A stretch of 22,205 bases of DNA, taken from Candidatus Helarchaeota archaeon (GTDB lineage Archaea; Asgardarchaeota; Lokiarchaeia; Helarchaeales; RDOG01). The position numbers and the translations under genes were made by a program. The DNA is taken from the NCBI GenBank assembly GCA_029838215.1, contig JALGVI010000049.1, forward strand, positions 1 to 22,205. The letters run 5' to 3'. Within the stretch, counting starts at the first letter, position 1; the number at the start of each line of letters is the position of its first letter. The notes below the pieces were generated by a model. The model had not been told where the DNA came from. It saw only the letters and a program-made list of their open reading frames with translations, and ran no database searches. Shown here in pieces: positions 39 to 17,373 of the stretch.

Positions 39-189
39 TAGTTTAATTATATATGAAATTTGAAATAAAAAAAAATCGGTTTTTTCGAGTTTTTTATCGC
101 GAAAAAAAAAGAAATTTCAAGCCGATTGCAGGATTCTGGGCAAAGAAATTCGGTAATATTTAGATGTTCTAAAAAAGTGAGTTAATTCT

Positions 190-203
190 AAAAAGAAAAT
201 AAA
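190..203 (-). terminator. Putative archaeal oligo(T) terminator of the hps-panE-mfnA operon
   Basis: Minus strand reads TTTATTTTCTTTTT a few nt after the mfnA stop at 210. A further T9 tract lies at 102-110. Confidence 0.35.
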
Positions 204-209
204 GGAGTT

Positions 210-1412
210 TCACGTTCGTGCATATACATGAAATGGTGTTGGTTCGGGAACTAATTTGTTTGTGATTTTTTCCAGATCGAAGAGGAATTTTTCAACATGG
301 CATTCTTCAACGTGTGGCATGACGACAATACGTATCATGTCGGGGAATAGACCAACAGCCCAACCCCTGCGACGTAGTTCCTTGTCAATCTTATAAATAT
401 TATAAACATCCGAAGTGAATCCGACAACATTCATGACCGGGTTTCGCACGAGTCGAACACCATCGATTTCATCGATCCCTCGAGCAACGAGGTTCGTGAT
501 ATTCATGCATTTTTTAACGATCTCTCTATATCCTTTACGACCGAGATGCTTCATCGTAGCCCACATGGCAATGACGCTGGCACCTGACCTCGTGCCCACG
601 ATGGTTGCCTGACGGATGTGTCCTCCTGCCAAATATGGAATGTCGAAATAACTCGTCCCGATCACTTCGCTATTGCGAAAAATTATTCCGCCCGCAGGAA
701 TGGGACCAAGACCCATTTTATGGGGATCAATTGTTATCGATCTCACGCCTTCAAACGTGAAGTCAAAATCCCGAATGTCATGTCCGAGTTCTTTCAGAAA
801 GGGAATCACGAATCCACCAAATGCAGCATCGACGTGAAGGTGGATGTCATTATCAATTGCCAAATCAGAAAGAGCTTTTACATCATCAACGGTTCCTAGA
901 GAAGTCGTGCCAGCAATTCCTACCAAACAAATGGTATTTGGAGATATGGCTTCCTTGACGGCTTCAATATCTACACTATATTCTTCATTCAATGGAACCT
1001 TAACGATCTTCAAGCGCATTAGGTCTGCGGCTTTGTCAAAGCTCGCGTGTGCCGATTCGGGGACGATGATTTCATTTTTCGTATTGTAATAGTGGCGATG
1101 GTTTCGTGCCGTGCGGACGGCAATTAAATTGGCTTCAGTACCACCAGTTACCAGATAACCAACGGCTTCAGGATTGTGAAGGAGCTTTCCTATCATGCGG
1201 ATGGCATCTCGTTCCAGCGACCAAGTGCCGACCCACAAGCCGGGATCGCCCAAGTTCTTGTCAAGGTGATGAGTATAAATGGTATTCGTAAATCTAAGGG
1301 GTTTCGTGCACATGCTACCAAGGATCTTTCCTGAAGAATAGTTCATGTCATTCCCTAGAATGCGGTTAATTCGTCGTAGGATTTTTTCTTGGCTTAAACC
1401 TTCTTCTTTCAT
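210..1412 (-). CDS. mfnA: Group II PLP-dependent decarboxylase, MfnA type (L-aspartate/L-tyrosine decarboxylase)
   Basis: Motifs KILGSMCT, NLGDPGL, GGTEAN, AHASFDKAA, GIAGTT, HVDAAFGG and SITIDPHKMG (PLP lysine), plus GTRSG. The 400-aa length is typical of archaeal MfnA. It sits next to panE. Confidence 0.9.
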   Translation of the reverse strand: MKEEGLSQEKILRRINRILGNDMNYSSGKILGSMCTKPLRFTNTIYTHHLDKNLGDPGLWVGTWSLERDAIRMIGKLLHNPEAVGYLVTGGTEANLIAVRTARNHRHYYNTKNEIIVPESAHASFDKAADLMRLKIVKVPLNEEYSVDIEAVKEAISPNTICLVGIAGTTSLGTVDDVKALSDLAIDNDIHLHVDAAFGGFVIPFLKELGHDIRDFDFTFEGVRSITIDPHKMGLGPIPAGGIIFRNSEVIGTSYFDIPYLAGGHIRQATIVGTRSGASVIAMWATMKHLGRKGYREIVKKCMNITNLVARGIDEIDGVRLVRNPVMNVVGFTSDVYNIYKIDKELRRRGWAVGLFPDMIRIVVMPHVEECHVEKFLFDLEKITNKLVPEPTPFHVYART

Positions 1413-1426
1413 TGTTTTTCCTTCTT

Positions 1427-2347
1427 TTAATTGTTTGCTCGTTCAATACCTTTTATGAGCGCAGTAATCATCTGGTTTAAGGGTGTCGGCACGTTTACGC
1501 GCTTGCCCATTCGAACGATAGCGCCATTGATGTAATCTATTTCAGTCGGTCTTCTTTTTTCAATGTCTTGTAACATGCTGTTCCTATTTTTAAAAGTCTT
1601 TTGACACACTTCGATTGTTTTTTGTAACGACTCTTCCACAGAAAGAGAAAGACCGTAAGCTTTAGCCACAAAGACGGCTTCTTCAATTAATTTGCTCATT
1701 ACATCCAAAAGTTCGCCATCTTGTAAATGGCCGTTCTGCAGACCTGTTATGGCACCAAGTGGGTTTATTCCGACATTAACCATTATCTTTTTCCAAATGA
1801 GTGATTCGATATCATCAGATATCGTTGTTGGAAATCCACTCTGGTTGAAGATTTGTTGAATTTCATTCAAGATTGGTAAACGTGCTTGAGTCAAGGAACC
1901 AATAGCAGTTTCTCCCTGACCCGTATGCTTGACGGTACCGGGTTTTATTACTAACGCTCCATTAGTGGTGGTTCCCCTGATAATTCGTGAATTGTCCCCT
2001 AACACGTCACTTGCAATATCTTCGATTCCCAACCCATTTTGCAAGCATAACAAAAAAGTCGCTTCGGTAAAAAGTTTCCTTGCATCAAGGAGAGCTTGTT
2101 TCGTGTCATATGCCTTGACAGTCAAGATAACAAGATCCGCGGGTCCAATTTCCCCTGCATCAATGCAAGCATGAATATTCTTGACCAAAACGTTTTTTGA
2201 AAGTCCTTCGATTTGCAAACCTTCTTTTTGAATGGCTTGCATGTGAGATGAGCGCCCGATGAAATGGACACGATTATCCGTATTATGAGCGATATAACCA
2301 CCGAATAGAGAACCTATAGCTCCTGCACCCATGATCACGATATCCAT
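1427..2347 (-). CDS. panE: 2-dehydropantoate 2-reductase (ketopantoate reductase, ApbA/PanE)
   Basis: N-terminal Rossmann motif GAGAIG, then LTVKAYD, LQNGLG, WKKIMVNVGINPL (catalytic Lys), SMLQDIEKRRPTEIDYING (catalytic Glu). Confidence 0.93.
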   Translation of the reverse strand: MDIVIMGAGAIGSLFGGYIAHNTDNRVHFIGRSSHMQAIQKEGLQIEGLSKNVLVKNIHACIDAGEIGPADLVILTVKAYDTKQALLDARKLFTEATFLLCLQNGLGIEDIASDVLGDNSRIIRGTTTNGALVIKPGTVKHTGQGETAIGSLTQARLPILNEIQQIFNQSGFPTTISDDIESLIWKKIMVNVGINPLGAITGLQNGHLQDGELLDVMSKLIEEAVFVAKAYGLSLSVEESLQKTIEVCQKTFKNRNSMLQDIEKRRPTEIDYINGAIVRMGKRVNVPTPLNQMITALIKGIERANN

Positions 2348-2356
2348 GCTTACCTT

Positions 2357-3676
2357 TCACCCGATGACTTTTTCCCATTTCTTCAGTTTCAATACTTTCG
2401 ATAACGTGGAGCCACGTTTGATCTCTTCCCGAACGCGATTTTCATTTTCAAGCACCATCGCAGCCCGGTTGGCGATCTCTTGAGCTTGCTCCTTAGGAAT
2501 CACGATGACCCCACAATCATCCCCAACGACCCAGTCTCCAGGGCTTACCTTCAATCCTCCACACGTTATTTCGATATTAACTTCACCAAATCCTTTTGGT
2601 TCCCCTGCATTAGATTTGACATGCCGGCTGAAAGCCGGAAATTTCATCTCTCGAATATCATCAACATCACGAATTGCACCATCTATGACGACTCCTGTAA
2701 CACCTTTTGTCTTGCAGGACCAACTTGCCAACTCGCCCCAAACAGCAATGTCTCCGCCCGATTCATCTATAACGATGACGTTTCCTTTTTCTGCTAAATC
2801 TATAGACTCAACAGGTTTTGACCAATCACCATTATAACACCGCACGGTTATGGCACGACCCACGAGCTTAGAACCTTCCCACACGGGACGAATGCCTTCC
2901 ATGCACGGAGCGCGATGCATTGCATCACTTATGTTTGGCGTGCTTACCATTGAGAAGACGCGGAACAATTCGTCTTCACCGTATTTCCTCATCAATTTCG
3001 ACTTGATGGGTTTTCCTGTTTTCATCGTTTCCTTGAGAGCACGAGTTGCTTCTTCACAATTCTCCGCAGCCGTGATTGCATGCCCAACAATGAGAATATC
3101 GGCTCCTGCTTCGATCCCGAGCGGTGCGGTCTCCGTGTTTATTCCGCCTGCCATCGCTATCTCAGCATTCACGACGACTTCAGAGATTTGCTTGGTAATT
3201 TCGATGGGATTCATGCCCTTGACTTGTTGATCGATTCCCACGTGAATGCAAATGATATCAACACCCATTCGTTCCAGGGCAACGGCACGCTCGATAAAAT
3301 CGGAAACGTTTATCAAATCAACCATGATGCGGGCACCATACTGCTTGCCAGCTTTCAGGGCTTCGAGAATCGTTGAATTATCACTCACGCCCAAAATAAT
3401 GACGATATCCGCACCGCTTTTTGCCGCCATCTCGACTTCTATGCCACCGACATCCATTGTTTTCAAGTCTGCAACAATCACTTTGTTTGGAAATTCCTTC
3501 TTTAATGTACGAACTGCATTCATGCCTTCGCTTTTAATGAGAGGCGTGCCAACCTCGATCCAATCCACACCGCCAGCTACCGCCTCACGGGCGATTTGCA
3601 CGGCACGATCGAGGTTCATCAAGTCTAAAGCAACTTGTAACTTGGCTTCATTCATGTTTATTTTTTCGTCGCTCAT
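2357..3676 (-). CDS. hxlA: 3-hexulose-6-phosphate synthase fused to a C-terminal RraA/HMG-aldolase-like domain
   Basis: HPS barrel motifs LQVALD, IEVGTPLIKSEG, ADLKTMDVG, HVGIDQQ, AGGIN. RraA-like motifs STPNISDAM, GRAITVR, VWGEL, DGAIRDVDDI, PGDWVVGDDCGV. I prefer the ATG at 3676 (upstream GAAGGA) over the track's TTG at 3715. Confidence 0.88.
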   Translation of the reverse strand: MSDEKINMNEAKLQVALDLMNLDRAVQIAREAVAGGVDWIEVGTPLIKSEGMNAVRTLKKEFPNKVIVADLKTMDVGGIEVEMAAKSGADIVIILGVSDNSTILEALKAGKQYGARIMVDLINVSDFIERAVALERMGVDIICIHVGIDQQVKGMNPIEITKQISEVVVNAEIAMAGGINTETAPLGIEAGADILIVGHAITAAENCEEATRALKETMKTGKPIKSKLMRKYGEDELFRVFSMVSTPNISDAMHRAPCMEGIRPVWEGSKLVGRAITVRCYNGDWSKPVESIDLAEKGNVIVIDESGGDIAVWGELASWSCKTKGVTGVVIDGAIRDVDDIREMKFPAFSRHVKSNAGEPKGFGEVNIEITCGGLKVSPGDWVVGDDCGVIVIPKEQAQEIANRAAMVLENENRVREEIKRGSTLSKVLKLKKWEKVIG

Positions 3677-4106
3677 GATGGATCCTTCGTCAATTTCATA
3701 TCTACTTTTAGACAATAAACAAACGGTATAAAAAAATTTTGAAATTTCTACATAATTGAACTAGTTTCTATATAGGAATTTATCTTCTATATATTTTCTA
3801 GAAGAAATCTATAGACAAAAAATGATCATATCTACTAACAGGATCAATCTTTTTCTAATCAAGAATTAAAATACGTTCCAAAATAGAATGAAAAAATAAG
3901 AAATAAAAACGAAAACAACCAATTATCAAGAAAAAATTAGGCATTAAGAACACAATTCACTCAATTTTTAGAACGATTATGAGCATGTCTATCTATTTCA
4001 CCAATGAGAACAAAATCCCGCCTATTTCCATTTTCAGTTCTCTTAGAGGCTAACCGAGAAGACACCTTTTTATAATCTGTCTGAAGACAAGTTTTCATCG
4101 CCGTTT

Positions 4107-4490
4107 CTATTTCCAGAACAGAGATTGGCTTGAAGTTATTCTTTTTAGAGCTTCTTCCTTTGAGCAACAGATGACATCAGGTTTTCCGCCTTGGAATATT
4201 GCCTCGGTCTTCATTAAAGCTCTTTGGATCGGTGAATGAACAACAATATATGTTGGCATTATATTTTGGAAAATTCTAAAAAATGAACGCCCTTTTTCAG
4301 TAACACGTCCATTTTTAGGCAATATTAACACGTTGCCTCTAACTTTGGTTTTTGATTTTATTAGTTTAAGGTATTTAATTAACCTTTTTGCCTCAGACTC
4401 TTCAAAATAAGCGGGTAATTTCATCAAAATTGTGTTATTTTCTTCATCAATTTGAATTTTCGACATTACATTTAATGAAGGCAATTTCAA
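4107..4490 (-). CDS. Small hypothetical protein, possibly STAS/SEC14 (SpoIIAA-like) fold
   Basis: 127-aa ORF with a beta-beta-helix-beta start (KIQIDEENNTILMKL) and a C-terminal CSKEEALKRI resembling the 'F-x-x-x-EEA-x-x-WL' ending of SpoIIAA-like proteins. Alternative ATG at 4466. Confidence 0.5.
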   Translation of the reverse strand: MKLPSLNVMSKIQIDEENNTILMKLPAYFEESEAKRLIKYLKLIKSKTKVRGNVLILPKNGRVTEKGRSFFRIFQNIMPTYIVVHSPIQRALMKTEAIFQGGKPDVICCSKEEALKRITSSQSLFWK

Positions 4491-4844
4491 AACCCCACGA
4501 TTAAATCATGTATAATGGACATCTAAATAAGAATTAAACTCTCGAACCCGACTTTTTCGCCTTTACTTGATGAATCTCGATAAAAACATTCCGATTCTCA
4601 AGATTTAGTTAAATCAGATGATTTTTAAAAAAGGATCCAACCGACAAATTCCTACCAAGATCTAATATGTGTACAGCATGATTTTAAAATTTCGGTTGAC
4701 GTGATCCGATGATTAATTAGTTTTTTAAGGACGTGAAGGAAATTTCTTGTTAATATATCTTCCATAATCTAAAATAACAGAGTTTTAACTTTTTAAAAAA
4801 CGCGCCAAGAGATTCAACAATTCCGTGCGAAGGAGAAGTTTATA

Positions 4845-6341
4845 TTGTCCACGGATCAATACGATCTTAAAAAAGAAAAGAAAAAAGCCATTCCCTTGCT
4901 CCGAGATTTTGCAAGCAAGTGCACGGCTTGTGGAGTATGCCTGAGAAATTGTGTTTTTCATGACTATTCGAAAAAAGATAGTCGTAAAATAATGAAAGAA
5001 TTAAAAGAATTTCTACTTAGCAAGAAATTAGATGCAAAATTAAGTAGGAAGACTCGAAAGTTCATTTGGACGTGTGGGCTTTGCGAGCATTGCTTAAACA
5101 CGTGTCCCATCTCCGAAAAAATCCCTCGAACCCCGCTATTAATTCTTACAAGGGCAATTCTGGTAATTCAAGACAAGGCACCATTTTTCGTGAGGTTCGC
5201 ACGGAAGACGCTCTTCAGGGACATCAATAATCCGACTTTGAAAAATCTATGGCCCATCACGGCAAAATTATTCGTTCCCGAGTGGAATTCGCCCAGTGAC
5301 CCTGTCAAGAAAAAAATTCGGAAAGCCATTGAGAAAGCACGACGACTGCCAAAAAAAGGAGCCGAAATCTGTTTTTCAGGGGGATGCGGTCATACTTGGG
5401 CGGCACCAGATGTGGTCTATTCGACAATATCTATTCTAGAAGAAGCCGGAGAGGATTTCATCACCATTGGAAACCCAGAATATTGCTGTGGTGTCGTATA
5501 TGCCGTTTTGGGGTATCTCGACCTTTGGTTTGAGCAAACACACAAGGTCATGAATAATTATTTACGCTTGGAGCCGAGACCGAAGAAGATCTTGCTTCAT
5601 TGTCCTGGTTGTTTCACCAGCTACAACTTTGATCTTTCAGAATATGGCATCACGCTTCCATTTAGCCATTTAACGCACATGTCTGACCCCATGGAGATTC
5701 TAAACGTGAACGAATACATCTACAAACTGATAAAAACAAGCAAGATAAAATTGAAGGAATCAATTCCGATGACCGTGACGTACAATGACAGCTGTTCTCT
5801 GGGGCGTAGAATCGCATGGACAGGGAAAACGGTTTATGAAGCCCCACGAGATGTCCTTAATAGCATACCGGGAATTAAAATGGTTGAATTAGATCACGTG
5901 AGAGATGATGCATATTGTTGCGGGTTGATCGGGACAAAACTATTGGGACTCGGCGAGAACCTGAGCGACATGATTGGAAAAGATAAGGCATATAAAATTC
6001 AAAAAGAATTATTTCAAACAATGCTCGAAAGGGGATCGGAAAACCTTGTCGTTCCATGCATGGGATGCTCCATCGTCTTTGAGGATTCGGCAAGAATATG
6101 GGCAAAAAAATTGGGAAAGAAAATCAACGTTTACGACGTGCAAGAACTCGTCAATAAGTCAATGGGCAAGCACATTCCACGAAGATACCTTTTCATCAAC
6201 AACGCCGTTAGTCTTTCGTTACCTTATATAAAGAAAGATCTCTTCAAGGTGATCCCGCGTATTTTCAAAACTCACGCGTTTAAAGACATCTTTAGGTTCC
6301 TGAAAGACACCATCAAATATCTAATCAAAAAACCCAGTTGA
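4845..6341 (+). CDS. (Fe-S)-binding oxidoreductase, HdrD/GlpC-like: 2x[4Fe-4S] ferredoxin domain plus two CCG domains
   Basis: CTACGVCLRNC and CGLCEHCLNTCP. CCG1: GGCGH...YCCG...CPGC. CCG2: YNDSCSLGR...YCCG...CMGC. TTG start after GAAGGAG. Confidence 0.87.
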   Translation: MSTDQYDLKKEKKKAIPLLRDFASKCTACGVCLRNCVFHDYSKKDSRKIMKELKEFLLSKKLDAKLSRKTRKFIWTCGLCEHCLNTCPISEKIPRTPLLILTRAILVIQDKAPFFVRFARKTLFRDINNPTLKNLWPITAKLFVPEWNSPSDPVKKKIRKAIEKARRLPKKGAEICFSGGCGHTWAAPDVVYSTISILEEAGEDFITIGNPEYCCGVVYAVLGYLDLWFEQTHKVMNNYLRLEPRPKKILLHCPGCFTSYNFDLSEYGITLPFSHLTHMSDPMEILNVNEYIYKLIKTSKIKLKESIPMTVTYNDSCSLGRRIAWTGKTVYEAPRDVLNSIPGIKMVELDHVRDDAYCCGLIGTKLLGLGENLSDMIGKDKAYKIQKELFQTMLERGSENLVVPCMGCSIVFEDSARIWAKKLGKKINVYDVQELVNKSMGKHIPRRYLFINNAVSLSLPYIKKDLFKVIPRIFKTHAFKDIFRFLKDTIKYLIKKPS

Positions 6342-6354
6342 AAACCTGACGAGA

Positions 6355-6891
6355 TCATCCTTTAATTTTAATGACGCATCCATCTTTTGTCTTTTCAATC
6401 TGAATTTCGAAGCCAAGATCCGCTCCTTGTCCATATACTAATTCGCAAAAATAGCACGATATGTCGTCAGGAACATCGATCTTTGTCTTTTTTGAATATT
6501 TTTTGCACATTTTCCGGAACTTGCAATTCTTTAATTCAATCTGACTCAATTTTTCATCCGTGATGAGCGTGAAATCTTTTAATTTCTGAAATGGCTGCCA
6601 ATTCTCAAATATTTGCCCTCTAAATTGAGAAATTAGGAAGCTCGTCGGCATTTTCCGTATCGCAGCTAAAGCGATGGGATTATTATATGTTGAATATTTC
6701 AATTTATCATAGATTTCATATTGGAAATCGAGATATTCGCGTGGATCGATTCCCTTTTTCAAGCAAAAAGCAAAAATCGCAAATTGTTTCATGTGATAAA
6801 ACTCATTACAAATCTTTAACTTCTCTTTATAACTTATTTCTTTCGTTATTTCCTTACCGCGCTTGATTTCTGGTGCCTTTTCTTTCGACAT
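6355..6891 (-). CDS. Hypothetical protein, possible V4R/ATC-hydrolase-like small-ligand-binding fold
   Basis: 178 aa, with C-terminal Cys pattern CKFRKMC...SCYFC...DGCVIKI and terminal beta-hairpin (FEIQIEKTKDGCVIKIK) reminiscent of V4R-type domains. The family call is an inference. Confidence 0.55.
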   Translation of the reverse strand: MSKEKAPEIKRGKEITKEISYKEKLKICNEFYHMKQFAIFAFCLKKGIDPREYLDFQYEIYDKLKYSTYNNPIALAAIRKMPTSFLISQFRGQIFENWQPFQKLKDFTLITDEKLSQIELKNCKFRKMCKKYSKKTKIDVPDDISCYFCELVYGQGADLGFEIQIEKTKDGCVIKIKG

Positions 6892-7018
6892 TCAAGATTT
6901 ACCTCAAGATTCTTCAATGGTGAATTTGTTTCTATCAGATGCTTTTGTGAAAATACTCAAAATTGTTTCCAAAAAAGAATATAATACAATAATTCATGGT
7001 TTTTTTGGTGGAAGATTG

Positions 7019-8662
7019 ATGAAATCACTCGAAGAAATTTCAGGTTCTCGCCTTTACGACTACATGACGGATTTTATTAATATAGGATGGCGCCGACCCG
7101 GAACGCCCGAAGCACACAAAACTGCAAAATACATTTTAAAGCACTTTGACGAATTTGGACTTGAAGATACTCGGCTTGAGCCATTTGAAATGTTATTATA
7201 TGAGCCTACTGAATGGAAATTGACCATAAAGTGCGATTTATTACCAAATCATGAAACGGAAATTAGATGCTTTCCGTTGTGGCACACGAAAGCCACGGAA
7301 ACGGAGGGAATCGATGCAGAAATCGTGCACGTGGGATGGGGAACTCCAAAGGAATTCAGAAAATACGACGTGAAAGAAAAGATCGTGCTGGTCGAATCGC
7401 ATCGGATGATGGCATTTTATCCAACAATGGATTTTTTTCGCTCTTATGAGAAAGCCCGGCAGAAAGGAGCCATTGGACTGATTGCCATTCACGACACCCC
7501 ACCAAACACGCTTTTCGCAACATATGCGACGCGCCATCAGACGTTGAAAGATACAAATCAAGAGAGCGGAAACATACCTGGGGTGGTCATCAGTCATGAA
7601 GCAGGAAAATATCTCAAGACATTGGTTCAGCAAGGAAATGTACGGGCAAATTTAAAGTTAATTGCATCAATAAAGACGGCAATGACGGATAATTTAATCG
7701 GAAAATTGGAGGGAAAGAAAAAAGAGGAAATCATCCTTGTTGGAACGCACATTGACAGTTGGTTTGATGGTGCCATAGATAATGCGGGTGGAAACGCGGG
7801 ATTCTTGGAATTGGCAGATTACTATAGTCAAATTCCAGAGAAGCAGAGAGAAAAAACCATGATCTTTGCGGGATTTGCGGGTCATGAAGTCGGTTCGATC
7901 GGAGTGATAGAATTTGCTCGAAAACATCATTCATGGTTTAATAAAATAACGACGTATTGCATGGTCGATGGATTCGGTTCAAAAGGTTATATTCTCGAAA
8001 GTCCCGGTCGAGAACCCATGGAAACACGACTCGATGAAGCAAAGGGATTATTCACCACGGAGAATCAAGTACTTTTTAATTTTCTCTCAGACGCCGCCTT
8101 TAAATATCGATTGTTTCCGAGCATGCACGTTTCTGCAGTGAAAGGCGCATTCAGCGATTTGGGTCCGCTTGTTGCGGCGAACGTGCCGAGCATCATGGTC
8201 ATTAGCAAGGGAATTTTTTACCACACCATCCAAGATACTGCAGACAAAGTCTTGGCTTTGCAATTAGAACGAACCACGAAAGCACACGTTGAGATATTGG
8301 ATAAAATCCACCAAACGCCTTCGAATGTTATAAAAGCAGCCGATAGAAAGGGTATAAAACTTCCCACCCAACCAGATCTCAACAAGAGAGGCTCCATTCA
8401 CTTTTCATTTGACATTACACCGAATCCGATGGTAGAGGGAACGACGGCTTTGATTTATTTGACATCATATACTTGCGAAGATCGAATCATCGTAGATTTG
8501 AGATGGACACTTGAGAATGGCTACGAATTACATTCACCGATCCTACCGCAAAGGTTTGGCAAGAGCGGGCAATACAAAGTACGCCTCACGCTAATGGATA
8601 ATTTCGGCAATGAATATTTCTTGGAAAAGACGGCATTCGTGATTAAGAAAGCCAGAAAATGA
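7019..8662 (+). CDS. M28-family metallopeptidase with PA domain insert and C-terminal PKD-like domain
   Basis: RRPGTPEA (M28 N-term), PA region AEIVHVGWG...DVKEKIVLV...GAIGLI, metal-site motifs THIDSW, GAIDNAGG, GHEVGSIG, MVDGFG, YHTIQDT, and PKD-like tail (LRWTLENG...FGKSGQYKVRLTLMDNFG). I prefer the ATG at 7019 (GGTGG upstream), because the track start at 6863 overlaps the divergent gene. Confidence 0.85.
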   Translation: MKSLEEISGSRLYDYMTDFINIGWRRPGTPEAHKTAKYILKHFDEFGLEDTRLEPFEMLLYEPTEWKLTIKCDLLPNHETEIRCFPLWHTKATETEGIDAEIVHVGWGTPKEFRKYDVKEKIVLVESHRMMAFYPTMDFFRSYEKARQKGAIGLIAIHDTPPNTLFATYATRHQTLKDTNQESGNIPGVVISHEAGKYLKTLVQQGNVRANLKLIASIKTAMTDNLIGKLEGKKKEEIILVGTHIDSWFDGAIDNAGGNAGFLELADYYSQIPEKQREKTMIFAGFAGHEVGSIGVIEFARKHHSWFNKITTYCMVDGFGSKGYILESPGREPMETRLDEAKGLFTTENQVLFNFLSDAAFKYRLFPSMHVSAVKGAFSDLGPLVAANVPSIMVISKGIFYHTIQDTADKVLALQLERTTKAHVEILDKIHQTPSNVIKAADRKGIKLPTQPDLNKRGSIHFSFDITPNPMVEGTTALIYLTSYTCEDRIIVDLRWTLENGYELHSPILPQRFGKSGQYKVRLTLMDNFGNEYFLEKTAFVIKKARK

Positions 8663-9162: not shown

Positions 9163-10824
9163 TCACGGTAGGGGAGGGTCAATTTCGAGGTCTTTCGGAT
9201 ATCGAACCAAATAACGGTATTTTATCTTCATTTCTTCAGATGGCTTTAATTCTAGATCCCATGTAGCAATTCCCAAATCGAATTTCGTTGGCTTGACTGA
9301 AAAATAGTCTTCAACATGTTTCAAGGTCGGTTCTACTTCAATATCAGCAGATTTACTGTGTGGAATGCGATCTATCAAGGTCAATTTTGTTTCTTTCTTG
9401 CGATAATTGTTGATCTTGATTTCATATACATATTCATTTTCTAATTTACCCTTGGTAATGCCTTTTTTGCCGATTTCTCGCTTGGTTAATTTTCTTTCGA
9501 CTTTCATTTCATAAGATAATCGCGTCCCGATCTTGAATTCTTCACTTGGAGATATCACTTTGATGTATGTCTCGCCCACGAAGTCTCCATCGACATAGCA
9601 CTTGACTTTTCCAGGTAAAAGGGTTAAATCACCGTTTTTGATTTTCTCTTGGGCAATTAATTGTTGATCTAGCGAACTCCAATAGAATAGACGGGACGAA
9701 CTTGCCTCGAAATCTTGGAGCAGCACGGGATGTGGATTTCCATCTGCCTTTATCTCCATCTTCTTTGGAATTTTAAAATTTTGAACGCCAAAAGAACTTT
9801 CAGATATGGAGGCGGTTTCGATAGCCATTTCAACAGCAGCGGGTTCGGCAGGGGGACTTTTAGCCATGTAATCGCGGTCCATTGCTAATTCTTCTTCATA
9901 TTCAGCAAATTCCATTTTGTCTTTCGCCTTTCTTTTCTTCATTAAAGAAACACTCTTTGCACGTATCATCGGTGGTTGAGGTGGCGGAGCATAGACGCGT
10001 TCGGAAATATACCACGGATATGGCTCGGTAATGGAAACAGGTTTGAAAGTAGCCGTGGATATTTCCAAGTTCACGTCATTCCAATCTTCAAGAGTCCTGT
10101 TGACGACATTCGCCATGTATCCGATTCGTGTTTCTTCTTCGGTTATCTGCACGTCATAGAATGGAGTCCACGATGCGTTCTTTATTTGGTAAGAAACTTG
10201 TAATTCAAAAACACCGGCACCACTTGATTCAATTGTCACGATAACGGAATAATTTTCTTCAACCCTTCGTTGCTCATCCCCTAACTTGCGAAGTTCTTGG
10301 TTCACTTTTTCAATGTCGATTACATTCTTTTCTAACTTGTCATCGATGTCATGAATGGTGGCTTGAAGTTCCGTGATTTTTTCTTCGCTCAAAGCATGAA
10401 GATCTTTCAAATTTTGGATGGAAGACTCCCCTGCAGCAAAAAACTTGGGAAATTCAGCATTGAAATTGTTGGTGATTTGATTATAATCTTCAATTCTTTT
10501 CTTATGACGATTTTTTTCCGATATAAGTTTTTTCCGTGCTTTTTGAAGATTTTTCATCGTTTCGCGTAATTCATCCAGTTTTTCATGTCCAGTTTTTTCA
10601 ACATAATTGTAATTAACTTCCACGTCTACCAACGTGGCGTTAAAACCTTTTCCAGATCCCTTTACGCGGACACTATCTTTATCAAGAAATTTTGAGATTT
10701 TTTCGACTTTAATCTCATTAAGTCCTTTTTCTAAATTGATTTCACCTGAACGCGTGACACGAGCACCGTCCAGAAAAACGGTAACGTCAGCGATGTCCGT
10801 TTCTACAACTTTGTTTTCGCTCAT
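9163..10824 (-). CDS. DUF4140/DUF4139 domain protein (MuiA-like, TIGR02231-type conserved hypothetical)
   Basis: N-term IADVTVFLDGARVTR...LDKDSVRV, long coiled coil, VSYQIKNASWTPFYD, VVNRTLEDWNDVNLEIST, LLPGKVKCYVDGDFVGET, C-term YEIKINNY...LIDRIPHS...WDLELKP. ATG at 10824 preferred over 10899. Confidence 0.85.
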   Translation of the reverse strand: MSENKVVETDIADVTVFLDGARVTRSGEINLEKGLNEIKVEKISKFLDKDSVRVKGSGKGFNATLVDVEVNYNYVEKTGHEKLDELRETMKNLQKARKKLISEKNRHKKRIEDYNQITNNFNAEFPKFFAAGESSIQNLKDLHALSEEKITELQATIHDIDDKLEKNVIDIEKVNQELRKLGDEQRRVEENYSVIVTIESSGAGVFELQVSYQIKNASWTPFYDVQITEEETRIGYMANVVNRTLEDWNDVNLEISTATFKPVSITEPYPWYISERVYAPPPQPPMIRAKSVSLMKKRKAKDKMEFAEYEEELAMDRDYMAKSPPAEPAAVEMAIETASISESSFGVQNFKIPKKMEIKADGNPHPVLLQDFEASSSRLFYWSSLDQQLIAQEKIKNGDLTLLPGKVKCYVDGDFVGETYIKVISPSEEFKIGTRLSYEMKVERKLTKREIGKKGITKGKLENEYVYEIKINNYRKKETKLTLIDRIPHSKSADIEVEPTLKHVEDYFSVKPTKFDLGIATWDLELKPSEEMKIKYRYLVRYPKDLEIDPPLP

Positions 10825-10958
10825 TTTTTCCACATCATAATTTTTAATTTTATAGAACTGAAAACCGGCTCGTTCCTCTTTACAATAAAAAGAAATCATT
10901 CCTATTCGTTTTTAATCTTCAGATGGAAGTTATACAAGTAATAATCAAATAAAAATTT

Positions 10959-12809
10959 TTAGATTAAAGCAGGGGGGTTTTTGAGATCAAGCTTCTCTTT
11001 AATGGAATATTTTGGAACGATACGCACCGTTTTAAATAAGCCAGAAATGTTTTTACCTTCGGTTATAAACTTGAAATCAATTTTATTTTTATCTGTTGTT
11101 AGAAATTTGGTGATTTCCACGCGATCTGATTCCCAGCAGACCGACTGGACGGGCTTGTCGTTTACAGAGATTTCCATGGCAGAAGTTAATCCATTGAAAT
11201 CTAAAAAGAAGCGATAATGATCATTTGAAAGTGGAATTTCAATTGAATTTGATGCGATATAGATGTGATTATTTAATTTCTTTGTTTTTTTTCGGGATTT
11301 GCTTAATTTTTGAGATGAAGGTCGGATTAACCATTTATTTAAAAAATCTAACGGTTGAATCATTTCATTTTTCTTAAAGTGATAATATTTTTCATTTATT
11401 CCGATAAAGACATCGGGCATTGATGAATATCCAATGAGATCTCCTGTTTTCGAGTTAAAATCTTCAACGATCATGTTGGTTTTCGTGATGTGAAGTGAAG
11501 GCACCTCTGGAATGAGTTGTATCATGCGAAATTCGTGAGGCAAGAACTCCATTGAAAAAGAAGTCTTTCCACTCAATTCTGAAAAAACCTTGAATTGTTG
11601 AATGAGCCCATCTTGAACTCCCCAATTGAGAAGATTGCCAACGCCATCCAAATTGACTTTAATGTCATTAGTTTTATTCGTCCCATTTATTAAAATGACG
11701 AATGTAGATGACCCTAATGAGAAAATATAATTTTTAAAATGTCGCTTGATGCGAACGAGCTCATTAATTTTTATTGCGGGATCGTGAAATCGATTTAATA
11801 AATCTTCAATGTAAATCTCGGCTTTGACTTCAGAAGATATTTCATATGGAACAAAGAAGAACAGCTTGTCTTGCGTGTCAAAATGAGCACTGGGGCTTCT
11901 GTAACGATAGAATAAGTCTCCGAAAAATTCGTGCCTCATTTTTGCGATGTACCTTCGTTGCATCCTTCGTCCTCGCTTGAGCGGAAAAACCGCAAACACG
12001 AAAATGCCATTTTCGGTTATTGTTTTCAAAACATTTAGCAATTCTTCGGATTGCTTGAAATGCGATAATAGGATGAGAGCATCGAGTTTTTGACCGTTAT
12101 ATAGCAACCCAGATTCATCGAACTTCGGGGTCGATTTCAACAAATCGGCTTCGGGGATGAATTCATGATCGAATTGCAAATGAAATAATGTTCTCGAAAC
12201 GGTCAATACTTCCGAAGTGATATCCCGAATTTTGGTTTTGGGATCAATTTCAGATCTCTTGACAATGTCAGGAACAACAAATCCAATCCGTTTCATTCTT
12301 TTTGGTTGCAAGGAAAAAAATAAACCCAATCTCGAAAACAATTCAGTGAATCGAGGATATTGCCGAGTGCTTGACAATTGTTCGAATACAGAAAGATCGA
12401 TACAATAGTCTTTTAAAGTGAGAAAAGTGCCAAACGCCTTATCATCAAATTCCAACTTCGAGTTCATGAAATACTCGGAAAGTGCCACAAAATCGGTCAT
12501 TAAAATGTAAGGATAAGAATTTTTGGAATTTTTGGTTGCAAGCCATGTCAGCTTTTCAAGGAGAGCGGCCGCGTCTTTGGTTTTTGAAAGTGGAATGTCA
12601 TGCACGAATATTGGTGCGGGTTTCGCCCCTTTTTTTAAGGAGGAATATTTAGATTTCAGGGTCTTTAGCGGTTGAGAAAAATCCAAGAATCGCGGTTTCA
12701 ACTCGGAAGAAAACTCTGAAATATTCACGAACTCTTGTCGAAGCTTGTCTAATTCTGTTTGCGATATTTTTCTCACCAAAACAGATATTTTAATTTTTAT
12801 ACATAACAA
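10959..12809 (-). CDS. Hypothetical protein resembling the non-catalytic C-terminal two-thirds of GH106/GH2-type glycoside hydrolases
   Basis: Middle segment LFHLQFDHEFIPEADLL...LLYNGQKLDALIL resembles the GATase-like domain. C-terminal FLDFNGLTSAMEISVNDKPV...W...VEITKFL...N...SGLFKTVRI resembles the galactose-binding jelly-roll. Recognised by pattern only; start codon uncertain. Confidence 0.6.
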   Translation of the reverse strand: MLCIKIKISVLVRKISQTELDKLRQEFVNISEFSSELKPRFLDFSQPLKTLKSKYSSLKKGAKPAPIFVHDIPLSKTKDAAALLEKLTWLATKNSKNSYPYILMTDFVALSEYFMNSKLEFDDKAFGTFLTLKDYCIDLSVFEQLSSTRQYPRFTELFSRLGLFFSLQPKRMKRIGFVVPDIVKRSEIDPKTKIRDITSEVLTVSRTLFHLQFDHEFIPEADLLKSTPKFDESGLLYNGQKLDALILLSHFKQSEELLNVLKTITENGIFVFAVFPLKRGRRMQRRYIAKMRHEFFGDLFYRYRSPSAHFDTQDKLFFFVPYEISSEVKAEIYIEDLLNRFHDPAIKINELVRIKRHFKNYIFSLGSSTFVILINGTNKTNDIKVNLDGVGNLLNWGVQDGLIQQFKVFSELSGKTSFSMEFLPHEFRMIQLIPEVPSLHITKTNMIVEDFNSKTGDLIGYSSMPDVFIGINEKYYHFKKNEMIQPLDFLNKWLIRPSSQKLSKSRKKTKKLNNHIYIASNSIEIPLSNDHYRFFLDFNGLTSAMEISVNDKPVQSVCWESDRVEITKFLTTDKNKIDFKFITEGKNISGLFKTVRIVPKYSIKEKLDLKNPPALI

Positions 12810-14399: not shown

Positions 14400-16379
14400 T
14401 TGGAAAAAGAATTACATAAAAAGGTCATTGAAAGCCTGAATGATATTGAAGGAAAGGTCGCAAGACAGAAAGCATTACAATTTATAAGAGATAAACAAGA
14501 GGTGCTCAAGGACAACTCGGATTTAATGCATCTTAAATTTACGTTGAAAAGCCTTGAGAAGAAAAATCTTTTTAATTGGAAGAAATTAATTGCTAGTTCT
14601 GTAAATAACTTGAAGGCTAATGGTTGCTACGTATATTTTGCTCAAGATGGAAAAAAAGCCTTTAATTACTTGAAAAAGATTATTCCCGGAAATCTGGTCG
14701 TCAAATCCAAGACAAACACGGGGAAAGAAATTAACCTCGTCAAGAATTTAGAAAGAATGGGATTTGAAGTAATAGAAACGGATTTAGGGGATCGCATCGT
14801 CCAGTTGGATGGTTCTGAGCCATCTCACCCTCTCGTGCCTGCGCTCCACATCCCTAGATCCAGAATAATAACGTTATTTGACACCGAAGGAAAATCTTCG
14901 GAAGATTTGACTGCAAGAGAAATCGTGGATTTGGCAAGAGAGCAGATTCGATCGAAGATACTGGAATCAGAAGTTGGAATCACAGGTGCCAATGCGCTCA
15001 CGGCAGATGAGGGTCTAATCTGCTTGATCGAAAATGAAGGAAACCAACGGCTCATCACCAGCTTACCGAAAAAACACGTCGTGATCACGGGCATTGACAA
15101 GATCGTGGAAAATATTTCGGAAGCCACGCTAATTGCAAAGGTTGCAGCGTTGTTTGGTTTGGGCGAAAAAACCGCGGGATACATATCATTCCTGAAAGGT
15201 CCATCTCGAACGGGTGACTTAGGATTTGAAATTATTGAAGGAATGCACGGTCCAGAAGAGGTTCACGTTATCATATTGGACAATAAAAGATCAGACATTC
15301 TTGAATCATCATACAGTGAAATTCTATTTTGCATAAGTTGCGGAGGTTGCGTGAACTATTGCCCAGTATACGAGCAAGTGGGAGGAATTTTTGGTTCGGG
15401 AGGAGGCGGTCGTGGAGCAGTCTTTATTGGTCTAACCAGAGGACTTCGGGATGGATACTTGGCAGGTCTTGATTTATGTACGGAATGCGGGGAATGCGTT
15501 CAATCATGCCCAACGTCAATTGATGTCCCAAACTTGATAATAAAAATGAGAAAAGAAGCACGAGAAAAGAAATTGACAATAAAACACCATGATGATATCA
15601 GAAATCAAATTATTAATGAAGGAAATCCTTTTGATAAAAAGGATCTTCGCTCTCAATGGTTCAAAAAGCAGAAAATCCACGTCGATCAAGACGCAAAACG
15701 ATTATTTTATGTTGGTTGCATGGCTTCATACAAGATCCCTGACCAAGCAATCCACGCAATGAAGCTAATGAACAAGTTGAACATCAGCTTCAATTACCTG
15801 TTTAATGAAGAGCCGTGCTGCGGAGGAATATTAAAGAGAACGGGTTACGTGCCCGAATTTGAAAATCAAAAAGCAAAAGTAAGGGATATTCTCAAGCAAT
15901 ATTCTGAAATAATTGTTATTTGTCCCGGGTGTTATAGCACCTTTCACTCATTTTACAATGATTTCTTTGAAATAAAAGGAATCCGAGTCAAGCATCTTAC
16001 CGAAATCTTACCACAATACATACAGCACTTTGAACACGGAAAAGAAACTCTAACCTATCACGACCCTTGCCACTTGGGAAGACACGGCAGGGTTTATGAT
16101 AGCCCACGACAGGTCTTGAATAAGGTCGGAAATCTTGTTGAAATGAGATTTAATAAGGAGCGTTCCTATTGCTGTGGAGCAGGCGGAGGTTGCGTGTCCG
16201 CATTTCCAGAAGTAACCAAGCAAATTTGTAAAACGCGTCTCAGCCAAGCACACGAAACAAATGCAAATTATTTGATCAATACATGTCCATTTTGTGAGTA
16301 TAATTTCAAAGAAACAAACTCAAGCAGGATAAAAATAACTTCACTTCAAAAATACCTGTCTACAAAATGCCTGAAATGA
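14400..16379 (+). CDS. LutB-like LUD/4Fe-4S protein fused to two CCG (LutA/GlcF/HdrD-like) domains; putative Fe-S lactate-type dehydrogenase
   Basis: VVKSKTNTGKEI, ETDLGDRIVQL, PSHPLVPALH, GITGAN, ENEGN, GIDKIV, GPSRTGD, HGPEEVHVIILDN. Fe-S motifs CISCGGCVNYCPVY and CTECGECVQSCP. CCG motifs GCMAS...CCGG...CPGC and YHDPCHLGR...CCGAGG...CPFC. Confidence 0.88.
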   Translation: MEKELHKKVIESLNDIEGKVARQKALQFIRDKQEVLKDNSDLMHLKFTLKSLEKKNLFNWKKLIASSVNNLKANGCYVYFAQDGKKAFNYLKKIIPGNLVVKSKTNTGKEINLVKNLERMGFEVIETDLGDRIVQLDGSEPSHPLVPALHIPRSRIITLFDTEGKSSEDLTAREIVDLAREQIRSKILESEVGITGANALTADEGLICLIENEGNQRLITSLPKKHVVITGIDKIVENISEATLIAKVAALFGLGEKTAGYISFLKGPSRTGDLGFEIIEGMHGPEEVHVIILDNKRSDILESSYSEILFCISCGGCVNYCPVYEQVGGIFGSGGGGRGAVFIGLTRGLRDGYLAGLDLCTECGECVQSCPTSIDVPNLIIKMRKEAREKKLTIKHHDDIRNQIINEGNPFDKKDLRSQWFKKQKIHVDQDAKRLFYVGCMASYKIPDQAIHAMKLMNKLNISFNYLFNEEPCCGGILKRTGYVPEFENQKAKVRDILKQYSEIIVICPGCYSTFHSFYNDFFEIKGIRVKHLTEILPQYIQHFEHGKETLTYHDPCHLGRHGRVYDSPRQVLNKVGNLVEMRFNKERSYCCGAGGGCVSAFPEVTKQICKTRLSQAHETNANYLINTCPFCEYNFKETNSSRIKITSLQKYLSTKCLK

Positions 16380-16428: not shown

Positions 16429-17373
16429 CTATTCAGGGTCTTTGACTTCTCTTTTAACCAGGCCCTTCAGTGCTTCATTGGCATCAGCAGTTGCTTTCAT
16501 GTAGAGCATCAGGGCCTTGACTTTTGCCAAATATTCCTTTTTCTTGATTTCATAATAATCTCGGGTCGTATCAAATTTCGTGAGCTCCGTTGCCACCTGC
16601 GCAGCACGCTCAAAATGCATTGCTGTTTCGTTGATCAAGTTTTTCTTCAGTGCTTTTATTGCTTTTTCTTCCAGTGCCATTACTTCATCCTGCATTTTCG
16701 GTATCTTGCGAAACATCTGTGATTTATTTGAGAATTTGGCAAAAAATTCTTCTTCCTTGATCTCTTTAAATAACTCCGCGGCTCTCTGATAATATTCTGC
16801 CGCTTTCGAGTGGTCTTTAGTTTTTAATGCATTCTCTGCCTGTTTCAGGGATTCCGCCAGTTTAAAAGGCACTTCATCGGCTTTCTTGAGGAGAGATTGT
16901 GCCTCTTCAAATTTTTTCATGTCCAAGAGTGTTTTTGCACGTTCACTAATCTGGTCGCGAATCTGTGAAGCAGAAAAGGTGAGACCTGAATCAGAAATGA
17001 TTTCCGTTTCATAAATATCTTTGATCAATTCAATCAATTTGGGATTGTCTATGCTATCCTTGATTTGCGGTTCTAATTTCCGTAAAATGTAGAAGAAATC
17101 ACTTGCCGCCTCGGTCACGTTTAACAATAAAAGAAGAATGATCCGCCTGACGGTGTTCTTTTGCTTGAACTGGAAATAATAAGAACTGACATTCGCATCT
17201 TCAACCTGAATTGAAATTTCACCTTCAGGAGGTTCCTTTGCAGTATGCATCATGAATGCTTGCATTGGCAAATCAGAACTGATTTCCAACGTTTCGGGAT
17301 ATTTTAATTTGATCACGGGACCAGTCATCTTGTCCCAATCTATAATAACCATTCCACGTGGCATGTTACTCAC
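16429..17373 (-). CDS. uDENN/longin-like N-terminal domain plus alpha-helical (TPR/MIT/SNAP-like) repeats
   Basis: The N-terminal GMVIIDWDKMTGPVIKLKYP matches the 'hydrophobic-F/W-D-x3-G-P-x5-P' start of uDENN/NPRL2-type longins. The C-terminal half has three A-x3-L...A-x3-Y/F-x2-AA helical units. The GTG start overlaps the GTPase stop (GTGA). Confidence 0.7.
   Translation of the reverse strand: MSNMPRGMVIIDWDKMTGPVIKLKYPETLEISSDLPMQAFMMHTAKEPPEGEISIQVEDANVSSYYFQFKQKNTVRRIILLLLLNVTEAASDFFYILRKLEPQIKDSIDNPKLIELIKDIYETEIISDSGLTFSASQIRDQISERAKTLLDMKKFEEAQSLLKKADEVPFKLAESLKQAENALKTKDHSKAAEYYQRAAELFKEIKEEEFFAKFSNKSQMFRKIPKMQDEVMALEEKAIKALKKNLINETAMHFERAAQVATELTKFDTTRDYYEIKKKEYLAKVKALMLYMKATADANEALKGLVKREVKDPE

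Follow-up and report, generated by a model that had tools for sequence, protein, structure and literature searches.

Ketopantoate hydroxymethyltransferase (PanB, EC 2.1.2.11, PF02548) forms ketopantoate from 2-ketoisovalerate and a C1 unit donated by 5,10-methylene-tetrahydrofolate. To our knowledge, the older comparative-genomics literature has left the source of ketopantoate in PanB-less archaea, including methanogens, unclear. The control genomes of Methanosarcina acetivorans and Methanocaldococcus jannaschii, in which PPS is present and PanB absent, agree with this gap. PanB itself has been found to work without folate, joining free formaldehyde to 2-oxo-acids, among them the one derived from valine (PMC7611260).

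Two other groups of proteins are relevant here. HPS, the enzyme 3-hexulose-6-phosphate synthase, occurs in archaeal Fae-Hps (NF009833) and Hps-Phi (NF041755; solved chain 9LJ9) fusions, and in a family named 'bifunctional hexulose-6-phosphate synthase/ribonuclease regulator' (NF005442, PRK07028). A literature search found no paper tying this HPS-RraA fusion to pantoate or ketopantoate synthesis. Among RraA-like proteins (PF03737), the HMG/CHA aldolase of Pseudomonas putida (3NOJ) uses a catalytic Arg-123, a metal-binding Asp-124 and a metal-site Glu-199 (PMC5065237). According to literature cited in that paper (its reference 21), homologues bearing such motifs are likely aldolases.

Genomic locus of the HPS-RraA fusion

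The window, i.e. the whole stretch analyzed, comprises 22,205 nt from Candidatus Helarchaeota archaeon (GCA_029838215.1, contig JALGVI010000049.1, positions 1 to 22,205). Three co-oriented genes are listed as ORFs on the minus strand: the HPS-RraA fusion (2357-3676), panE (1427-2347) and mfnA (210-1412), separated by gaps of 9 nt (2348-2356) and 14 nt (1413-1426). The original prediction had described this trio, a DGAIRD Arg/Asp pair in the RraA domain and the lack of panB in the window. The ORF coordinates confirm the arrangement, and the DGAIRD motif occupies residues 332-337 of the ATG-start fusion protein. Each gap contains a purine-rich, Shine-Dalgarno-like stretch. The fusion ORF (2357..3715) is open from a TTG at 3715; the ATG at 3676 is the likely start, since homologues at 60-87% identity begin at this ATG, and yields a protein of 439 aa. 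As read from the sequence, an AT-rich segment with a TATA-like run precedes the fusion gene (3716..3760, minus strand) and is a putative promoter region, and a T-rich stretch past the mfnA stop (150..209, minus strand) is the likely end of the operon.

The panE gene encodes a ketopantoate (2-dehydropantoate) reductase of 306 aa with ApbA and ApbA_C domains, and mfnA an MfnA-type PLP decarboxylase of 400 aa, presumably an aspartate decarboxylase supplying beta-alanine. Both proteins score above the curated cut-offs (TIGR00745, 287.7 bits vs 141.35; TIGR03812, 491.4 bits vs 299.4). The three genes probably constitute one operon that provides both halves of 4'-phosphopantothenate, pantoate and beta-alanine, with the fusion in place of the missing PanB.

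The genome measures 3.62 Mb, with a completeness of 94.3% and contamination of 6.2%. PanB was found in it neither by PF02548 nor by tblastn with an Asgard PanB, and the fusion protein is likewise without a PF02548 match. The rest of the pathway is present: in addition to PanE and MfnA in the window, PoK and PPS are encoded on separate contigs, and IlvD is available for ketoisovalerate. A search for hexuloisomerase returned a tandem-SIS protein of 422 aa alone (99.7 bits vs a cut-off of 160), which counts against replacement of PanB by the fusion.

The genome encodes a second HPS, as do most of the fusion-bearing Asgards among those listed; in this genome it is a Fae-HPS fusion. The HPS-RraA fusion is thus not the housekeeping RuMP enzyme here. 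This bears on a rival account, in which the fusion is a RuMP enzyme making pentose phosphate, its aldolase domain scavenges toxic formaldehyde with pyruvate to give 4-hydroxy-2-oxobutanoate, ketopantoate comes from another enzyme, and the absence of PanB reflects lifestyle or the type of C1 carrier. We consider this account unlikely, in part because the Fae-HPS protein already disposes of formaldehyde onto H4MPT; further evidence on both sides comes from gene neighborhoods and distribution (see below).

Conserved catalytic residues in both domains

The fusion covers model positions 2-428 of 430 of NF005442 with 654.2 bits (cut-off 593) and combines OMPdecase/HUMPS (PF00215) and RraA-like (PF03737) domains in one chain. 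The HPS domain (residues 12-213; 3038..3643, minus strand) reaches 227.3 bits with TIGR03128 (cut-off 200) and matches the solved HPS structures 9LJ9 (E=1e-63), 3F4W (5e-40) and 3AJX (7e-38). Residues E41, D70, K72, D75, H145 and D149 are invariant in an alignment of 14 homologues. From what is known of KGPDC/HPS structures, we assign these to the Glu, D-x-K-x-x-D and His positions that serve metal binding and catalysis in barrels of the OMPDC suprafamily.

The RraA-like domain (residues 246-392; 2501..2941, minus strand; PF03737 at 3e-48) is followed by a C-terminal tail (residues 393-439; 2360..2500, minus strand) that is helical at 395-420 and 425-438 according to the AF2 model and is nearly invariant across the 14 homologues, which stem from five phyla. 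The pTM of this model is 0.55, too low to fix the domain orientation, so neither the orientation nor a tunnel between the domains can be read from it. The best solved relative of the C-terminal domain is the HMG/CHA aldolase 3NOJ (E=1.8e-23). G314, E315, R336, D337, K361 and E410 of the fusion correspond to Gly-101, Asp-102, Arg-123, Asp-124, Lys-147 and Glu-199, and are invariant or nearly so among homologues. E410 is located in the tail and, in the alignment to 3NOJ and 3K4I, matches the metal-site Glu-199 of 3NOJ. The HMG/CHA-type motif is represented by R336-D337, the acidic E315 located 21 positions before the Arg, and E410. The swap of Asp-102 for Glu and the lack of a clear counterpart of Asn-71 in the 3NOJ alignment count against the PanB-replacement reading. 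Aldolase equivalog scores are not reached (NF006731, 128.1 bits vs 179; TIGR02798, 113.9 bits vs 304.5). Judged by sequence comparison, the domain shares its fold and mechanism class with the HMG/CHA aldolase but is no orthologue of LigK or HMG aldolase.

The invariance of the aldolase catalytic residues across phyla argues for catalysis rather than regulation by the RraA domain. It is very improbable that the annotation is correct, i.e. that the second domain is an RraA-type ribonuclease regulator and its order with panE and mfnA coincidental. No RNase E is known from archaea, the fusion conserves residues of aldolase catalysis, and the gene order is repeated in different phyla. A regulator is favored by the name that NF005442 carries in NCBIfam and by the fold common to E. 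coli RraA (1Q5X, E=4e-9), yet the RraA equivalog models remain far below their cut-offs (NF006875, 63.5 bits vs 136; TIGR02998, 37.1 bits vs 241).

Known RraA-fold aldolases take pyruvate as nucleophile (PMC5065237), which also fits the scavenging of formaldehyde with pyruvate. YfaU, a class II aldolase, gives a mere 2-3% product with the 2-oxo-acid derived from valine, which is branched at C3, whereas KPHMT catalysts convert the same acid to 24-36% product (wild type 36%, two variants 34% and 24%; PMC7611260 Table 2). Given the pyruvate habit of these aldolases and the poor yield of YfaU, acceptance of ketoisovalerate by the RraA domain is not a given.

Gene neighborhoods and distribution relative to PanB

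Among 96 fusion loci, MfnA is the commonest neighbor (21 loci), and PanE directly follows the fusion on the same strand in 13 loci from several phyla. The fusion-panE-mfnA arrangement is therefore more than chance. Three Asgard genomes show the order PoK>PPS>fusion>PanE>MfnA, and a Nezhaarchaeales MAG shows PoK>fusion>PanE>PPS>MfnA with CoaBC. A Hecatellales locus reads fusion>PanE>CoaBC, and in a further locus a split HPS>RraA>PanE adjoins PPS and CoaBC. A class-IV aminotransferase gene (IlvE-like, valine to ketoisovalerate) is located one to two genes downstream in 5 loci and is found in 6 in all. In the four Desulfobacterales loci examined, the gene immediately upstream of the fusion encodes a 6-phospho-3-hexuloisomerase (TIGR03127, 171 bits vs a cut-off of 160). 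In PanB-positive Asgards, PanB sits in PoK/PPS/PanE clusters (three loci), the same functional slot as that of the fusion. Co-localization with panE, mfnA, pok and pps, a check proposed with the original prediction, is thus borne out in several archaeal phyla and extends to coaBC.

Many fusion loci in Thermoplasmatota, Archaeoglobi and methanogens are without CoA genes nearby, which favors the RuMP account. That account, however, leaves unexplained why the fusion is embedded in operons with PoK, PPS, PanE, MfnA and CoaBC in at least four lineages. It also calls for another source of ketopantoate, and no further uncharacterized gene was found to recur in the fusion operons in the neighbor survey.

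Across 567 genomes, 300 carry only the fusion, 222 only PanB, 4 both and 41 neither, and PPS is also missing in at least 16 of these 41. The counts include related genomes that are not independent, so Fisher p-values overstate the anticorrelation. Fusion only, PanB only, both and neither are found in 22, 161, 2 and 16 Asgard genomes (n=201), in 109, 33, 1 and 8 Thermoplasmatota (n=151), in 111, 28, 0 and 12 Halobacteriota (n=151), and in 58, 0, 1 and 5 genomes of one bacterial order (n=64). The fusion is hence present in about three quarters of Halobacteriota (111/151) and Thermoplasmatota (110/151) and in 24/201 Asgards. PPS-positive genomes without fusion and PanB are rare (6/181 in Asgard, 2/144 in Thermoplasmatota). 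The anticorrelation with panB, which had been put forward for testing across archaea, is strong in all four samples.

No HPS other than the fusion is present in Thermoplasmatota, and genomes of this phylum with PanB are without any HPS; the anticorrelation there is consequently confounded with the presence of the RuMP route, a point in favor of the RuMP account. The bacterial order speaks against it, with PanC in 63/64 genomes but PanB in 1/64, and the fusion in 59/64. The in situ exchange of the two genes is likewise left unexplained by that account. Within one Asgard genus, the fusion (genome G175) and PanB (G112) occupy the same position between Ras-like and Rag-like GTPase genes, with MfnA and IlvE orthologues on either side and flanks that are 55-81% identical. 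The same exchange between orthologous flanks is seen in G151 and G050. Fusion and PanB thus replace each other in situ within one genus, a comparison that goes further than the checks proposed with the original prediction.

One of the four double carriers (G136) encodes fusion>PanB>PanE adjacently, which could also mean that both proteins cooperate. This adjacency and the in vitro use of free formaldehyde by PanB (PMC7611260) would suit a fusion that takes part in pantoate synthesis as C1 supplier only, delivering formaldehyde to a pterin carrier or another transferase. The RraA domain would then serve otherwise, e.g. in regulation or in oxaloacetate decarboxylation, which the name of NF006731 also assigns to RraA-fold enzymes. 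A role confined to C1 supply is nevertheless quite improbable: of the 304 genomes with the fusion, 300 lack a PanB that could take the C1 unit, another candidate transferase is absent from the fusion operons, and the catalytic residues of the aldolase are those kept invariant across phyla.

Comparative genomics therefore backs the reading that the HPS-RraA fusion stands in for the absent PanB and makes ketopantoate, which we regard as likely. At the genomic level, the role as PanB stand-in given in the original prediction is supported by operon context, PanB anticorrelation and in situ exchange.

Proposed ketopantoate synthesis and comparison with known systems

In the proposed pathway, fructose 6-phosphate would be converted to hexulose phosphate by hexuloisomerase, and the N-terminal domain would release formaldehyde from D-arabino-3-hexulose 6-phosphate, leaving ribulose 5-phosphate. 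The C-terminal RraA-fold domain would act as a divalent-metal (class II) 2-oxo-acid aldolase: with 2-ketoisovalerate bound, Arg336 would assist in enolate formation, and addition of the enolate to the formaldehyde would yield ketopantoate. PanE would reduce ketopantoate to pantoate, the MfnA-type decarboxylase would supply beta-alanine, and PoK and PPS, encoded elsewhere in the genome, would complete 4'-phosphopantothenate. We infer which substrates the aldolase domain uses, in which direction the HPS reaction runs, and whether one domain hands formaldehyde directly to the other. The reading is supported by gene content, operon context, complementarity with PanB, in situ displacement and the catalytic residues that both domains conserve.

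More generally, the fusion may well be the missing ketopantoate synthase, independent of folate, in methanogens, in many other archaea that lack PanB and in some bacteria. It would draw its C1 unit from hexulose 6-phosphate and pass formaldehyde internally to an aldolase of RraA fold with ketoisovalerate as an accepted substrate. If so, CoA biosynthesis in archaea would lose its last gap, and the C1 unit of a vitamin would be drawn from sugar-derived formaldehyde, not from a folate or pterin carrier. A widespread 'ribonuclease regulator' annotation would be corrected, and much of the 'RraA/MenG-like' family would gain its first physiological role outside aromatic catabolism. Biocatalysis would also gain a compact enzyme that hydroxymethylates branched 2-oxo-acids without a cofactor. 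Since Methanosarcina acetivorans carries the fusion and is genetically tractable, the idea is directly testable.

The resemblance to PanB is one of functional analogy, not membership, as there is no relationship in sequence or fold. Complementarity in genomes with the rest of the pathway and a shared slot are found for the fusion, as for a PanB analogue. The proposed product is the same, both occupy one position in PoK/PPS/PanE clusters and, within a single genus, one chromosomal slot, and divalent-metal enolate chemistry is proposed for both. The fusion differs in its two domains, in the proposed co-product ribulose 5-phosphate and in the proposed C1 donor, sugar-derived formaldehyde, which contrasts with methylene-tetrahydrofolate in PanB.

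The HMG/CHA aldolase is similar to the C-terminal domain in the retained counterparts of Gly-101, Arg-123, Asp-124, Lys-147 and Glu-199. Its retro-aldol/aldol chemistry on 4-hydroxy-2-oxo-acids belongs to the same reaction class as that predicted for the fusion. Unlike this enzyme, the fusion has Glu for Asp-102, a fused HPS and scores below the equivalog cut-offs; its context is CoA biosynthesis instead of aromatic catabolism, and its proposed nucleophile is ketoisovalerate instead of pyruvate.

Archaeal Fae-Hps and Hps-Phi share the HPS domain and a like design, with HPS joined to a formaldehyde taker (Fae, onto H4MPT) or a supplier of hexulose phosphate (Phi). In the fusion, the partner is an aldolase in a CoA-operon context, and formaldehyde would enter a 2-oxo-acid, not a pterin carrier. 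The fusion is a full-length member of NF005442/PRK07028 above the cut-off; the family name, however, gives the second domain no metabolic role and does not include the proposed ketopantoate synthesis. E. coli RraA has the same fold as the C-terminal domain, but what aldolase activity needs, the acidic-x20-R-D motif and a counterpart of Glu-199, is retained in the fusion.

Operon structure and the pathway gap in the genome

The three genes of the putative operon are encoded on the minus strand, with the HPS-RraA fusion (ORF at 2357..3715) followed by panE (1427..2347) and a gene for an MfnA-type PLP decarboxylase (210..1412). The most likely start of the fusion is ATG 3676, the point at which homologues with 60-87% identity also start. 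The upstream in-frame TTG 3715 is an unlikely start, as it is located in or beside an AT-rich, TATA-like stretch and the homologues begin at the ATG. In family scans, the fusion protein reaches 654 bits with NF005442 (cut-off 593) and 227 bits with the HPS domain model TIGR03128 (cut-off 200), and contains both PF00215 and PF03737. PanE scores 288 bits with TIGR00745 (cut-off 141) and the decarboxylase 491 bits with TIGR03812 (cut-off 299). The intergenic gaps of 9 and 14 nt both carry a purine-rich SD-like stretch, and a T-rich run follows the stop codon of mfnA, the last of the series, which fits a three-gene operon. ORF calls and family scans thus confirm the gene order, common orientation and gap lengths as originally described, and the DGAIRD motif reported for the RraA domain was found in the fusion sequence.

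According to the original prediction, the fusion could make ketopantoate from ketoisovalerate and HPS-released formaldehyde, in place of PanB. The genome containing the window (3.62 Mb, 94.3% complete) was searched for panB, and none was found: there is no match to PF02548, a profile that detects PanB in 11 control genomes with the same search, and tblastn with an Asgard PanB query returned nothing. PoK, PPS and IlvD are all encoded, so that the means for ketoisovalerate and for the conversion of pantoate to 4'-phosphopantothenate are present. Ketopantoate formation is the only step of the route without a gene in this genome. The fusion is its only RraA-like gene.

Several other genes of the window were recorded. 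Together with the best hits, the genes around the operon, a Ras-family GTPase gene among them, place the organism within the Asgard archaea, near Helarchaeota. A Ras-family small GTPase gene (PF00071, 163 bits) overlaps by 4 nt with the gene of a 314-aa helical, coiled-coil-like protein (16429-17373 and 17370-17912, minus strand). A LUD-domain, 4Fe-4S and double-CCG fusion protein is encoded at 14400-16379 (plus strand). A second Fer4/CCG protein, HdrD/LutA-like, is found at 4845-6341 (plus strand); the presence of its relatives close to the HPS-RraA fusion at two loci (L045 and L098) is probably coincidental. A DUF4140/DUF4139 protein (9163-10899, minus strand) has as its neighbor a 616-aa ORF (10959-12809, minus strand) for which Pfam gives no match.

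Catalytic equipment of the two domains

Both folds were set by sequence matches to solved structures. The N-terminal domain matches the solved HPS chain 9LJ9 (E=1e-63), and E41, D70-x-K72-x-x-D75, H145 and D149 are invariant. In four Desulfobacterales loci, a 6-phospho-3-hexuloisomerase gene scoring above its family cut-off is located directly upstream of the fusion, which supports hexulose 6-phosphate as the predicted substrate of this domain. The genome of the window, by itself, yielded no clear hexuloisomerase; its sole candidate is a 422-aa tandem-SIS/PHI-like protein (G000, contig C40, L124:1318-2586), which at 99.7 bits for TIGR03127 stays under the cut-off of 160.

The best solved relative of the C-terminal domain is the HMG/CHA aldolase 3NOJ (E=1.8e-23), for which Gly-101, Asp-102, Arg-123, Asp-124, Lys-147 and Glu-199 are described as essential or metal-binding (PMC5065237). 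In the alignment, Gly-101, Arg-123, Asp-124 and Glu-199 correspond to G314, R336, D337 and E410 of the fusion, and Lys-147 to K361 if a shift of one residue is allowed, whereas Asp-102 is replaced by Glu (E315). Across 14 homologues from five phyla, these six positions show no or almost no variation. The domain falls far short of the cut-offs of the true RraA regulator models and does not reach those of the LigK/HMG aldolase equivalogs either. Retained catalytic residues combined with scores under all equivalog cut-offs point to a catalytically equipped member of the RraA-like fold with a specificity of its own.

The metal-dependent PanB adds the valine-derived 2-oxo-acid to free formaldehyde, a reaction that YfaU, another class II aldolase, performs poorly according to the same table (PMC7611260). 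Given the poor performance of YfaU, the prediction hinges above all on whether the RraA fold would accept ketoisovalerate. In the AF2 model of the fusion, each domain is confident (mean pLDDT 87), and the pTM of 0.55 is too low to support a tunnel or a particular inter-domain geometry. The proposed mechanism is plausible but unproven.

Genomic neighborhood, distribution and exchange with PanB

To characterize the genomic context of the fusion, 96 loci were gathered (80 from named genome records, 23 from Asgard genomes) and the neighboring ORFs were clustered. MfnA is the commonest neighbor (21 of the 96 loci). PanE is found nearby in 15, in 13 of these directly downstream on the same strand. 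Next in frequency come a pantoate-kinase-like GHMP kinase (7 loci), PPS (PF02006) and a class-IV, IlvE-like aminotransferase (6 loci each), and CoaBC (3 loci). Three Asgard genomes encode the operon PoK>PPS>fusion>PanE>MfnA. A Nezhaarchaeales MAG carries CoaBC followed by PoK>fusion>PanE>PPS>MfnA, a Hecatellales MAG fusion>PanE>CoaBC, and an ENA scaffold (L130) a split HPS>RraA>PanE beside PPS and CoaBC. Operons of this CoA type cover all steps from ketopantoate and aspartate to 4'-phosphopantothenate, and no other recurring uncharacterised gene was found in them. The anticipated synteny with PanE, MfnA, PoK-like kinase or PPS, in some loci along with CoaBC, therefore holds in Asgard archaea, Nezhaarchaeales and Hecatellales; the surroundings are mostly unrelated in Thermoplasmatota, Archaeoglobi and methanogens.

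A search with the C-terminal domain for standalone RraA proteins yielded mostly pieces of fused genes on short contigs. Three matches are located on long contigs, namely the split pair in the CoA cluster of L130 and two that look like truncated gene calls. In 11 Thermoplasmatota loci (L011, L014, L016, L021, L023, L025, L027, L029, L039, L068, L079), the gene immediately after the fusion encodes a protein with DUF362 and 4Fe-4S ferredoxin domains; a gene of the YaaH family and one for a class I tRNA synthetase often come next. The DUF362 protein was considered as a substitute for PanE and ruled out, since PanE is encoded elsewhere in five such genomes.

The fusion (full-length matches to NF005442) and PanB were scored on the same genome samples. 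Among 201 Asgard genomes (at least 85% complete), 2 encode both, 22 only the fusion, 161 only PanB and 16 neither. The corresponding counts are 1, 109, 33 and 8 for 151 Thermoplasmatota, 0, 111, 28 and 12 for 151 Halobacteriota (at least 90% complete), and 1, 58, 0 and 5 for 64 genomes of one bacterial order around a Desulfobacteraceae MAG, of which 63 encode PanC. Taken together, 4 of the 567 genomes have both, 300 only the fusion, 222 only PanB and 41 neither, in line with the predicted anticorrelation; as the genomes are related and not independent, the very small Fisher p-values overstate the case. The four genomes with both genes are a weak point for a replacement. Much of the 'neither' class consists of genomes without any such pathway: PPS is also absent from 10 of the 16 Asgard and 6 of the 8 Thermoplasmatota members. 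PPS is present in all 110 fusion-bearing Thermoplasmatota and in 23 of the 24 fusion-bearing Asgards. The control genome of M. acetivorans likewise combines the fusion with PPS and lacks PanB. A standalone RraA-like gene in two PanB-less Asgards (G009, G020) was rejected as evidence on pantoate, since PPS is absent there too and the protein resembles generic LigK-like aldolases.

The complementarity is thus repeated in each of the three archaeal phyla and in the bacterial order. In Asgards, the pattern switches from genus to genus inside a family (f3, f4) as well as within a single genus (g9). The in-situ DISPLACEMENT in this genus, between genomes G175 and G112, is the strongest single result. 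G175 has the order small ORF, MfnA, DUF2100, 230-aa gene, Ras-like 596-aa gene, fusion, Rag-like GTPase and IlvE. The order in G112 is identical, with orthologues 55-81% identical to those of G175, and PanB occupies the slot of the fusion. The same exchange is seen between G151 (fusion) and G050 (PanB), and PanB of PanB-positive Asgards is likewise found within PoK/PPS/PanE clusters. Ras-like and Rag/Gtr1-like GTPase genes flank the PanB/fusion slot in Lokiarchaeia loci.

The Asgard genome G136 encodes PoK>fusion>PanB>PanE in one row (L104, contig C376, genes 2652-7067). The adjacency of fusion and PanB either represents a transitional state of displacement or hints at cooperation of the two. 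G172, a further probable transitional state, also has both genes, each at a locus of its own. In the fusion tree, which otherwise broadly tracks taxonomy, the sequences from G136, G172 and G175 group as sisters. The bacterial members branch from within the archaeal ones, which suggests that the fusion is old in archaea and was passed to some bacteria. The fusion of a Dehalococcoidia MAG (L049) is placed inside the Asgard clade next to that of G133 (L084), and sequences from Desulfobacterota and Firestonebacteria nest near Altiarchaeales. These placements indicate probable archaea-to-bacteria transfer or, for the single Dehalococcoidia case, bin contamination.

Operon context, phyletic complementarity and in-situ displacement all speak for the pantoate interpretation, and the fusion rather likely supplies ketopantoate in place of PanB.

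Relation to RuMP enzymes and known fusions

The question arises whether the HPS-RraA fusion is just a RuMP enzyme. In the Thermoplasmatota sample, it is the sole HPS and the PanB-positive genomes lack any HPS; the fusion may serve pentose synthesis there too. The genome of the window has a second HPS in the form of a Fae-HPS fusion (559 bits with NF009833, cut-off 274; G000, contig C130, L109:572-1819). Most fusion-bearing Asgards listed for the Asgard sample likewise carry another HPS, its frame being 395-461 aa long. With a second HPS present, HPS-RraA would here be an extra HPS dedicated to another role.

A full-text literature search found no paper tying the HPS-RraA fusion or RraA-like proteins to pantoate, and in a 2024 survey of fusions in archaea, Hps-Phi alone is named. 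The family is already named (NF005442) and its building blocks are known kinds of enzymes; the novelty thus lies in the proposed physiological role of a variant, not in a new kind of enzyme. The partner of the HPS in Fae-HPS is the enzyme placing formaldehyde on H4MPT; in HPS-RraA, the partner is an aldolase. The genome of the window therefore contains two HPS fusions, each with a predicted formaldehyde-consuming partner.
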